From Candidatus Xenobia bacterium (lineage in GTDB: Bacteria; Vulcanimicrobiota; Xenobia; Xenobiales; QWHO01): DNA of 36,522 nucleotides. The stretch spans positions 1-36,522 of the forward strand of contig BTUM01000079.1 of the NCBI GenBank assembly GCA_045863235.1. The letters are read 5' to 3'. This document shows positions 4,957 to 6,122 of this stretch, piece after piece (within the stretch, counting starts at the first letter, position 1; each line of letters opens with the position of its first letter). Position numbers and translations under genes: made by a program. Below the pieces are notes generated by a model, which worked only from the letters and a program-made list of their open reading frames with translations, was not told the DNA's origin and searched no databases.

Positions 4957-5053
4957 CAGTTCAACCCTCCCATGTCGGGCGGGCTTCGCAATGCTCCCCG
5001 GCCGGCTCCTTCCGGTGGCAGGGACAGGTGCCTCCGGCCTCCAAAACGAGACG

Positions 5054-5362
5054 ATGCAAAACCCTGTGCGCTTCTCCATCGACCGCTACCCCGATCGGGT
5101 CAGCATGAAGGTCTCGCTCACGCCAGACGCTATCGGATTGCGAGCCCGCTATCGGGCCCTGATTGTCCACCTGCACAACGTTCCCGAGCCCATTTTCTGG
5201 GATCTGGGCCGTGAGCTCGAGTTGGAGCGCCAGGTCGACTGCCTGGGAGCTCCGCAGCGAGTGTGCATCACTTGCTACGGGGTGGAGTCCGACAACAGCC
5301 TGCGGCTTGTCTTCCGCAACTGGAGCCGCCCTGGAGATGGCTTTCCCTTGCCCGAGGGCTAG
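5054..5362 (+). CDS. Hypothetical protein
   Basis: ORF MQNPVRFSIDRY... fills the gap between genes and has host-like codon usage. Confidence 0.6.
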   Translation: MQNPVRFSIDRYPDRVSMKVSLTPDAIGLRARYRALIVHLHNVPEPIFWDLGRELELERQVDCLGAPQRVCITCYGVESDNSLRLVFRNWSRPGDGFPLPEG

Positions 5363-5526
5363 ACTCTATCCTGAACGGCCGACCAGGCCAGCGCCGCTCC
5401 CATCAGTGAAGCAACCCACGGGTTGCAGGTCAGCCCTCAGCCAAAGCCGCTGGCCTTGCTGAGATAGCTGAAGCCCAGGCCCAGCAGGGCACCGAGCAAG
5501 ACGATCAACAGTGTCTGCATGCTCAT
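5359..5526 (-). CDS. Putative small membrane selenoprotein, DUF6132-like (MSMQTLLIVLLGALLGLGFSYLSKASGFG-U-GLTCNPWVASLMGAALAWSAVQDRV)
   Basis: In-frame TGA at 5437-5439. Readthrough gives a second TM helix and a U-x-L-T-x-N-P motif, and a SECIS-like hairpin follows. The TAG stop overlaps the stop of the convergent gene at CTAG 5359-5362. Confidence 0.7.
5411..5426 (-). promoter_or_regulatory. Bacterial SECIS-like hairpin
   Basis: GCAACC-CGUG-GGUUGC begins 10 nt after the UGA. The loop starts 16 nt after the UGA and has G at its second position. Confidence 0.65.
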
Positions 5527-5578: not shown

Positions 5579-5607
5579 TTGACATGTCCTGGGTGGATGA
5601 CTATAGT
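5579..5607 (+). promoter_or_regulatory. Strong sigma70-type promoter with an upstream AT-rich (UP-like) tract
   Basis: TTGACA (5579-5584), a 17-nt spacer, then TATAGT (5602-5607). AAAAGATTCTTTTTTTCTAAA lies just upstream. Confidence 0.85.
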
Positions 5608-5612
5608 CCGAC

Positions 5613-6122
5613 AGTCGACGGCGACGTCGACCGAATCGGCCGGCGACACGGCCGACGGGCTGCCAGAGACCGAGACCTGGCAGGGGTAGCGTGCAGACCA
5701 CAGGACGCCGCGTAACCTCGGACGCGAGACGACCGGGGGAGGCCTGGGGCAAAGGCGGGTCCGCGAGGATCAAGAAGCGATGCAAGTCGCGCCCGCTCGA
5801 GTGGAACCAGGAGGGACCGATGAGGATGGAGCCGGTCTACTGACGAAGAGTCAGCGCTCCGGGAAGCGACAGAACCGGCATACCGAGCGTGAGAAGCTCG
5901 GCGGGCTGCCAGAGTCCGAAATCTGGCAGGGGTAACGCGCAGACCAAAGTTGCGTGGCAGTGTCTCGACTGCCTGAACATCGAGGCGGGCCTGGAACCGG
6001 GTCGGGACCGTGAGGAGAACGAGCGAGCTTGCTCGCCACCGACTTGAGGTTGAACCAGGAGAGTCCGGTGAGGTTGGAGCCGGACCGCAAAGCCACCTGT
6101 TACAGGGTGGCTTTTGTGTTTT
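5613..6122 (+). ncRNA. Unidentified structured non-coding RNA with two tandem homologous domains
   Basis: Bounded by a promoter and a terminator, with no credible ORF. It is a near-continuous series of hairpins. Blocks 5656-5700/5902-5946 match at 40/45 and blocks 5804-5837/6052-6085 at 29/34, with compensatory changes. Confidence 0.75.
6089..6122 (+). terminator. Rho-independent terminator
   Basis: AAAGCCACC-TGTTACAG-GGTGGCTTT followed by TGTGTTTT. Confidence 0.85.

Follow-up and report, generated by a model that had tools for sequence, protein, structure and literature searches.

A tiny, predicted membrane protein related to DUF6132, with a conserved in-frame UGA, is very likely a bacterial selenoprotein

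In the window, that is, the whole 36,522-nt stretch of Candidatus Xenobia contig BTUM01000079.1 (assembly GCA_045863235.1) analyzed here, we identified a 55-codon gene on the minus strand (5359..5526), which starts with an ATG at 5526-5524, has a second ATG at 5520-5518, and ends with a TAG at 5361-5359. The frame contains a single UGA, at codon 30 (5439-5437), and with TGA rendered as U, the translation from 5526 to 5359 is MSMQTLLIVLLGALLGLGFSYLSKASGFG-U-GLTCNPWVASLMGAALAWSAVQDRV-stop, a DUF6132-related protein of 55 aa. The predicted selenocysteine occupies the column of the invariant cysteine of the family, within the motif U-G-L-T-C-N-P, and is followed by a partner cysteine, Cys34 (5425..5427, minus strand), in a U-x-x-x-C arrangement. 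The TAG shares bases with the stop codon (5360-5362) of a convergent 123-aa ORF (4991-5362). The original prediction, made from the letters of this DNA, had proposed both this readthrough frame and the overlap of the two stops, and each is borne out by the sequence. It had also anticipated that standard gene callers would truncate the gene, and the copy in the protein database, a 70-aa product with an upstream start that terminates at the UGA, confirms this truncation. A single-sequence search with the window protein retrieved this UGA-ended call as its sole match.

The gene stands alone, with no functional neighbor beside it in the window. Contigs assembled from the RNA runs of four studies span the gene with the UGA and the hairpin described below unchanged; such contigs are silent on strand and expression, and the ends of two of them, at 5524 and 5518, are at best a faint sign of a leaderless start. 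Divergent from the gene, we observed a non-coding region (5579-6122, plus strand) with a fold z of -2.5 that comprises two units in tandem, each about 270 nt long. Its segment 5579-5607 reads TTGACA-17-TATAGT, and a hairpin resembling a terminator lies at 6089-6114. No Rfam match was obtained for this region, copies of which are present at 16 places in the source genome and at 11-14 places per congener, one adjoining selD. The depth of matching contigs climbs into the thousands for two RNA runs (X2 and X5) and into the hundreds for a third (X3), compared to about 4 over the gene, these values being sums that include other organisms. The region is a candidate for an abundant, multicopy non-coding RNA.

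The AlphaFold model of the window protein is a helical hairpin (pLDDT 82.9) with predicted helices at residues 3-26 (5449..5520, minus strand) and 36-52 (5371..5421, minus strand). Helix 1, which includes the conserved G12 and G16, is clearly hydrophobic (Kyte-Doolittle values up to 2.05), and the short, Gly/Ala-rich helix 2 is moderately so (about 1.1). A sequence search against the PDB returned nothing below an E-value of 0.15.

Among 27 members of the family, DUF6132 (PF19628) was the only recurrent Pfam match (17/27 at E ≤ 0.1, best 1.8e-6). The window protein itself scores 15.1 bits against PF19628 (E 0.018), below the gathering cut-off of 23.2 bits, and is therefore filed here as DUF6132-related, not as a formal member; P0014, a match of the same profile search, which yielded 260 representatives at E ≤ 0.001, scores 49.8 bits. 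For a Cys ortholog, the top Atlas matches were DUF6132 clusters (score 0.88-0.89, to be taken as leads), and one Atlas cluster of DUF6132 Cys forms is automatically named 'YtxH domain-containing'. The window protein shares with the DUF6132 Cys forms its size and two Gly-rich helices flanking a C-x4-N-P loop, more precisely C-x-x-x-[SC]-N-P, with U at the Cys column; it differs from them in having Sec in place of the invariant Cys and the partner Cys at +4 instead of -5. In an alignment of 100 Cys-form proteins picked from the search hits, no columns are invariant other than G12 and the Cys matching the UGA. The link to DUF6132 made in the original prediction was correct, as was its placing of the UGA on the Cys of C-P-I-T-S-N-P, with the refinement that the window protein, staying under the Pfam threshold, belongs to a DUF6132-related subfamily.

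To survey the phylum, we built a profile from 27 homologs and ran it over 401 genomes. Matches were found in 33 genomes at 36 places, comprising 32 TGA-form genes (in 31 genomes), two Cys-form genes, and two paralogs with neither residue; the Cys/UGA pairs that the original prediction had proposed to look for at this column thus exist. The two paralogs (L074 in G019 and L075 in G023) also lack a partner Cys, and both genomes carry a Sec form as well. The Cys forms belong to G047 (CPITCNP) and G048 (CSTGACPITSNP), and no selA, selD, or selB match was found in either genome (G047 is 86% complete). For tRNA-Sec, the search of G047 gave a marginal match (51 bits compared to a cut-off of 47). Across 61 relatives, the TGA form is present in 27 of the 42 selA-bearing genomes (two with selA fragments only) and in none of the 19 without selA; the genomes in these and the following counts are related, so that the counts are not independent.

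Beyond the phylum, we searched GTDB with a TGA-anchored DNA pattern that fixes several post-UGA positions. The pattern retrieved at least 119 loci, of which 118 among those listed were confirmed by HMM, some being genes of the phylum set; before counting, we removed L143 and L279, which the HMM did not confirm, as well as a Cys locus present in duplicate. The listed UGA-form loci span about 17 phylum-level groups (80 titles, grouped by name), and none of the 118 has a stop within 22 codons after the UGA. In the phylum set, codon-position entropy downstream of the UGA is 0.94/0.77/1.65, a coding-type pattern, so conservation continues past the UGA in the homologs. Of the genomes harboring the 118 listed loci, 50 were tested for Sec genes: 46 encode selA and three of the other four encode selB, so that 49 of the 50 have either. 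The UGA form is thus restricted to Sec-decoding genomes, the sole exception among these 50 being G403 (1.7 Mb), in which searches for selA, selB, and tRNA-Sec found none. Alignment A3 took in 83 of the 117 Cys loci. In a FastTree tree of 209 short rows, there were 22 Sec/Cys changes and 9 changes of partner side (shuffled means of 68 and 67, respectively); rows of this length do not resolve the sequence of events, and the tree was therefore set aside.

The partner cysteine lies on one side or the other of the central residue. Among the 118 listed Sec forms, it is only downstream (+4) in 81 and only upstream (-5/-4) in 36, with one form having neither and none having both; in the Cys controls, it is upstream in 116 of 117. 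Four phylum members without the +4 Cys carry a Cys at -2 (three sequences were read; the fourth comes from the same family and shares the downstream sequence). The one-sided placement of the partner and the -2 replacements argue for a two-chalcogen site. In the Cys forms, Lys and Arg residues are concentrated at the termini (about 4.2, compared to 0.65 in the loop), suggesting that the loop faces out and, in those Cys forms that are fused to thioredoxin, would lie on the face opposite the fused domain; this bias is weak in the Sec forms (44/117 show none) and absent from the window protein. One Sec form (L240) has a C-terminal extension of at least 116 codons, cut by the end of the locus, and is probably a fusion.

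The source genome (G000, 97.6% complete) encodes the complete Sec machinery for which a check had been suggested, namely, selA, selB, a UGA-containing, Sec-type selD, and tRNA-Sec with the anticodon TCA. We found ten further candidate selenoproteins in this genome, namely, SelD, FDH, three thioredoxins, and SelW-like, HMA-like, Prx-like, MsrA, and Trx-like proteins, with family matches for SelD, FDH, the Prx-like protein, and one thioredoxin, and the others named by motif. Several of these candidates have G-U loops resembling that of the window gene, for example, CGUGC in Prx and GGUCU in FDH. The HMA-like metal-binding domain protein (G000:C16:54909, plus strand), assigned by motif, contains G-M-S-U-G-A-T-C, another U-x-x-x-C. 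Three apparent UxxxC candidates were discarded as gene junctions or shadow frames, and coding scores computed across the genome to detect UGA readthrough were too noisy for the window gene to be ranked. Elsewhere in the genome, an in-frame TGA breaks a pilin-like N-terminus (G000:C45, minus strand, 0-based strand position 54721).

Immediately downstream of the UGA of the window gene, we identified a proximal SECIS-like hairpin (5411..5426, minus strand), GCAACC-CGUG-GGUUGC, with stem arms at 5426-5421 and 5416-5411 and a loop at 5420-5417 that lies 16 nt past the UGA and has G and then U at its positions 2-3. The bacterial SECIS model, as given in the legend to Fig. 2 of PMC13188914, has a loop of 3-9 nt, a stem of 4-16 bp, a G in loop positions 1-2, a spacing of 16-37 nt, and a folding energy of -7.5 kcal/mol or lower. 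Scored with our own scripts, the window hairpin fits this model (4-nt loop, 6 bp, G at position 2, spacing of 16 nt), as had been proposed, with a borderline energy of -8.5 kcal/mol in a 30-nt context and -7.3 kcal/mol for the bare hairpin. Its stability is no better than chance (z of -0.1 to -0.9) and its pairing probability varies with the stretch folded, from 0.14 to 0.99 (0.69 in an 84-nt context). Taken alone, the hairpin is thus not significant, and it is the comparison between genomes that carries the case. All five genomes of the genus have retained it, G004 with a compensatory change from C-G to U-A, and a proximal hairpin with a GU loop is found in 35 of the 118 listed Sec genes compared to one of the 117 Cys genes (55/118 and 12/117, respectively, under a looser version of the model). 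The canonical hairpin of the window gene is, judging by these predictions, a minority SECIS type in the family.

Taken together, the open frame, the conserved UGA, the Cys that relatives have in its place, the Sec machinery, and the model-fitting hairpin leave little doubt that the 55-codon gene is real and make it very likely that it encodes a selenoprotein. The three outcomes that the original prediction had listed as refuting it (a genome without Sec machinery, homologs with a residue other than Cys at this column, and conservation ending at the UGA) were each checked, and each check came out in its favor. If the UGA were instead a true stop, yielding a truncated peptide or marking a pseudogene, with the downstream frame being incidental, the poor score of the post-UGA codons in a genome-trained coding model (-5.0) and the lack of significance of the window hairpin alone would be expected; however, the recurrence of the UGA at one and the same codon across about 17 phylum-level groups, the frame open for at least 22 codons with coding-type entropy in the listed loci, and the replacement of the UGA by Cys in genomes without selA have already largely refuted this reading, which we consider highly improbable. 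Decoding of the UGA as Trp, Cys, or Gly through a variant genetic code or by a suppressor tRNA, in favor of which one could invoke the Trp at this column in 5 of 150 database homologs (TGG codons and table-4 calls being alike possible), is hardly credible given that TGA is the main stop in the source genome (ending 1861 of 2923 long ORFs), that the only UCA-anticodon tRNA called there is SeC (one tRNA has an unresolved anticodon), and that the UGA form tracks selA/selB and carries SECIS-like hairpins missing from the Cys forms. The homologs with Trp are P0027, P0034, P0060, P0127, and P0151, in which this residue is possibly the gene callers' table 4 rendering of UGA. In the window gene, SelB would very likely bind the CGUG loop and insert Sec at codon 30.

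The majority of the listed Sec genes (83) lack a proximal hairpin. In these genes, nt 11-18 after the UGA can form a helix with nt 48-55 (71.4% paired; none of 500 shuffles was as high), whereas the same test in the Cys controls gave 56.0% paired, with 23 of 500 shuffles as high. Beyond this spacer helix, a distal hairpin whose loop reads G[G/U] is present in 74 of the 83 genes, compared to 5 of 115 Cys genes and 10 of the 35 Sec genes that have the proximal hairpin, and in 70 of the 74 the loop starts 66-67 nt after the UGA; in a stricter, fixed-register test, the respective counts in the two sets of Sec genes were 65/83 and 4/35. The distal stem, in which nt 60-66 would pair with nt 70-76, is 82.6% paired, with two-sided changes at all seven pairs and a covariation score of 0.588 compared to 0.247 for shuffled sequences. 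Registers slid along the sequence reach at most 56% paired, and the register, having been derived from the same sequences, is favored in this comparison. The position of the distal hairpin is fixed relative to the UGA, not to the stop codon, which it often straddles. It is absent from the genus of the window gene, which uses the proximal one.

Two other interpretations of these structures were rejected. A terminator role does not fit the distal hairpin: a U-run is present in only 5 of 65 cases, and 24 of the 65 hairpins are located within the coding region, their distance from the UGA being unchanged. The spacer helix alone does not qualify as a SECIS, its apical loop having no G motif and RNAalifold, applied to the spacer region, yielding no consensus and failing to recover the spacer helix; the spacer and distal helices both dominate the ensemble in only 43 of the 83 sequences. 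Unlike in the SECIS model with its spacing of 16-37 nt, the G-loop hairpin of most relatives lies at 66-67 nt, behind a spacer helix. From these patterns of pairing and covariation, the SECIS of most relatives is probably this predicted distal hairpin, which the spacer helix would loop back toward the UGA and the ribosome. The Cys form of G047 (L032/L080) has kept the potential for the spacer helix and lacks the distal hairpin, which, together with the marginal tRNA-Sec match in a genome with no match to selA, selB, or selD, would fit a recent Sec-to-Cys reversion. In selD genes (L111, L112, L122, and G000:C23:78959), we observed two adjacent hairpins after the UGA, the second with a GUU or GUA loop ~34-36 nt downstream of the UGA, resembling a short version of the spacer-plus-SECIS layout.

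As to function, the genomic context of the family may point to thiol chemistry. The commonest neighbor is thioredoxin: among loci of at least 3.5 kb, 13 of 74 Sec loci and 23 of 38 Cys loci have an ORF with a thioredoxin motif no more than 1.5 kb away, the other 61 Sec loci having no thioredoxin within this distance, and in G030, G045, and G048, thioredoxin is encoded directly upstream of the family gene. Furthermore, 11 of the 14 long homologs scanned carry a C-terminal thioredoxin fusion above the Pfam cut-off, and one other is fused to rubredoxin. Other recurrent neighbors are FmdB zinc ribbon, DUF302, OsmC, ArsR, YgaP-TM, CsoR/RcnR, TauE, methyltransferase, and rhodanese-like genes, the last identified from sequence rather than by HMM. 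In two loci (L078 in G023 and L087 in G017), the Sec-form gene is immediately upstream of ccoG. From the neighbors and fusions, a thioredoxin-coupled redox role at the membrane, in thiol or persulfide handling, has roughly even chances of being correct. The same balance applies to the assignment of Sec30 as the reactive center, with Cys34 resolving it as a selenenyl-sulfide, within a thiol/persulfide module that would include thioredoxin, rhodanese, and CsoR/ArsR-type sensors. In such a scheme, the Sec30/Cys34 loop would act as a redox switch recycled through thioredoxin, and with the loop on the face away from the fused thioredoxin, as the charge bias of the Cys forms suggests, the protein could serve as a pared-down redox relay in the membrane.

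The transmembrane domain of CcdA/DsbD has a Cys pair near Pro in the membrane and is linked to cytoplasmic thioredoxin. The present family is similar in its membrane-associated Cys pair near Pro and its link to thioredoxin, a likeness of working principle only, and differs from CcdA/DsbD in that its members have two helices only and none of the 27 matches the respective Pfam family. CcdA/DsbD-TM, YeeE/YedE, and Mer transporters are all absent from the 13 Pfam families matched by the 27 members at E ≤ 0.1.

Rather than cycling between redox states, the U-x-x-x-C of the selenoprotein might bind or pass on a soft metal or metalloid (Cu, Hg, or As), a possibility to which we assign a minor share. 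CsoR/RcnR-family genes are located directly downstream in four phylum loci and six listed GTDB Sec loci, the surroundings repeatedly include ArsR-family regulators, an ArsM-like methyltransferase, and FmdB zinc ribbons, and the HMA-like protein of the source genome has the same motif; yet thioredoxin prevails both as neighbor and as fusion partner, the rhodanese-like, YgaP-TM, TauE, and OsmC neighbors indicate sulfur or thiol chemistry, and no Mer-type family was matched by the 27 members. A somewhat less probable alternative is an oligomer of the selenoprotein that would transport selenium or sulfane sulfur through the membrane or along it, resembling the Cys loops of YeeE/TsuA. The neighbors are indeed typical of persulfide-handling operons and canonical forms have G-C-x-[ST]-G ahead of the invariant Cys, but the cysteine of G-C-x-S-G is lost from the window protein and no match to PF04143 was found among the 27 members; a search for a YeeE (PF04143) gene in the source genome likewise found none. 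Returning to the redox reading, we consider a conserved, UGA-decoded gene for a two-helix membrane protein, in which Sec30/Cys34 likely form a redox switch recycled via thioredoxin, a highly probable overall explanation. For the DUF6132-like proteins at large, we lean slightly toward widespread, uncatalogued selenoproteins that would form a minimal, thioredoxin-coupled relay (C-x4-U or U-x3-C, reversible) and mostly depend on the distal SECIS, lineages such as the genus of the window gene having switched to the proximal one.

The window gene has in common with catalogued bacterial selenoproteins an in-frame UGA for which orthologs have Cys, a partner Cys, and a hairpin of the SECIS kind. Nevertheless, the family is not among the 119 families in Table 1 of the 2026 catalogue (PMC13188914), which has no DUF6132 entry and no UxxxC motif, and a term search did not find it in the deep-Sep supplements (PMC12013277); the comparison also drew on the accessible parts of BSepDB (PMC13326102) and PMC4513850. 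NCBIfam 20.0 has no model for the family (no match better than E 0.055), and a full-text literature search found no paper naming the DUF6132/PF19628 family, although other recent candidate lists could include it. The same search found no paper on a distal bacterial SECIS. The protein encoded here, very likely a selenoprotein, belongs to a widespread family of tiny, predicted membrane proteins that is missing from the catalogues checked.

To conclude, the bacterial selenoproteome would gain a broadly distributed membrane mini-protein, and with the likely active residue and its partner marked in a family of unknown function, that function becomes directly testable. The two SECIS layouts on one gene offer a natural comparison. 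In BSepDB (PMC13326102), a canonical SECIS is reported to be missing from 12.6% of the bacterial selenoprotein entries. If confirmed, the distal SECIS would break the rule that the bacterial SECIS directly follows the UGA, and the combination of a spacer helix with a distal hairpin could account for part of these SECIS-less entries (roughly 13%). These findings would be relevant for the prediction of Sec genes and for engineering Sec insertion without a SECIS in the codons just after the UGA.
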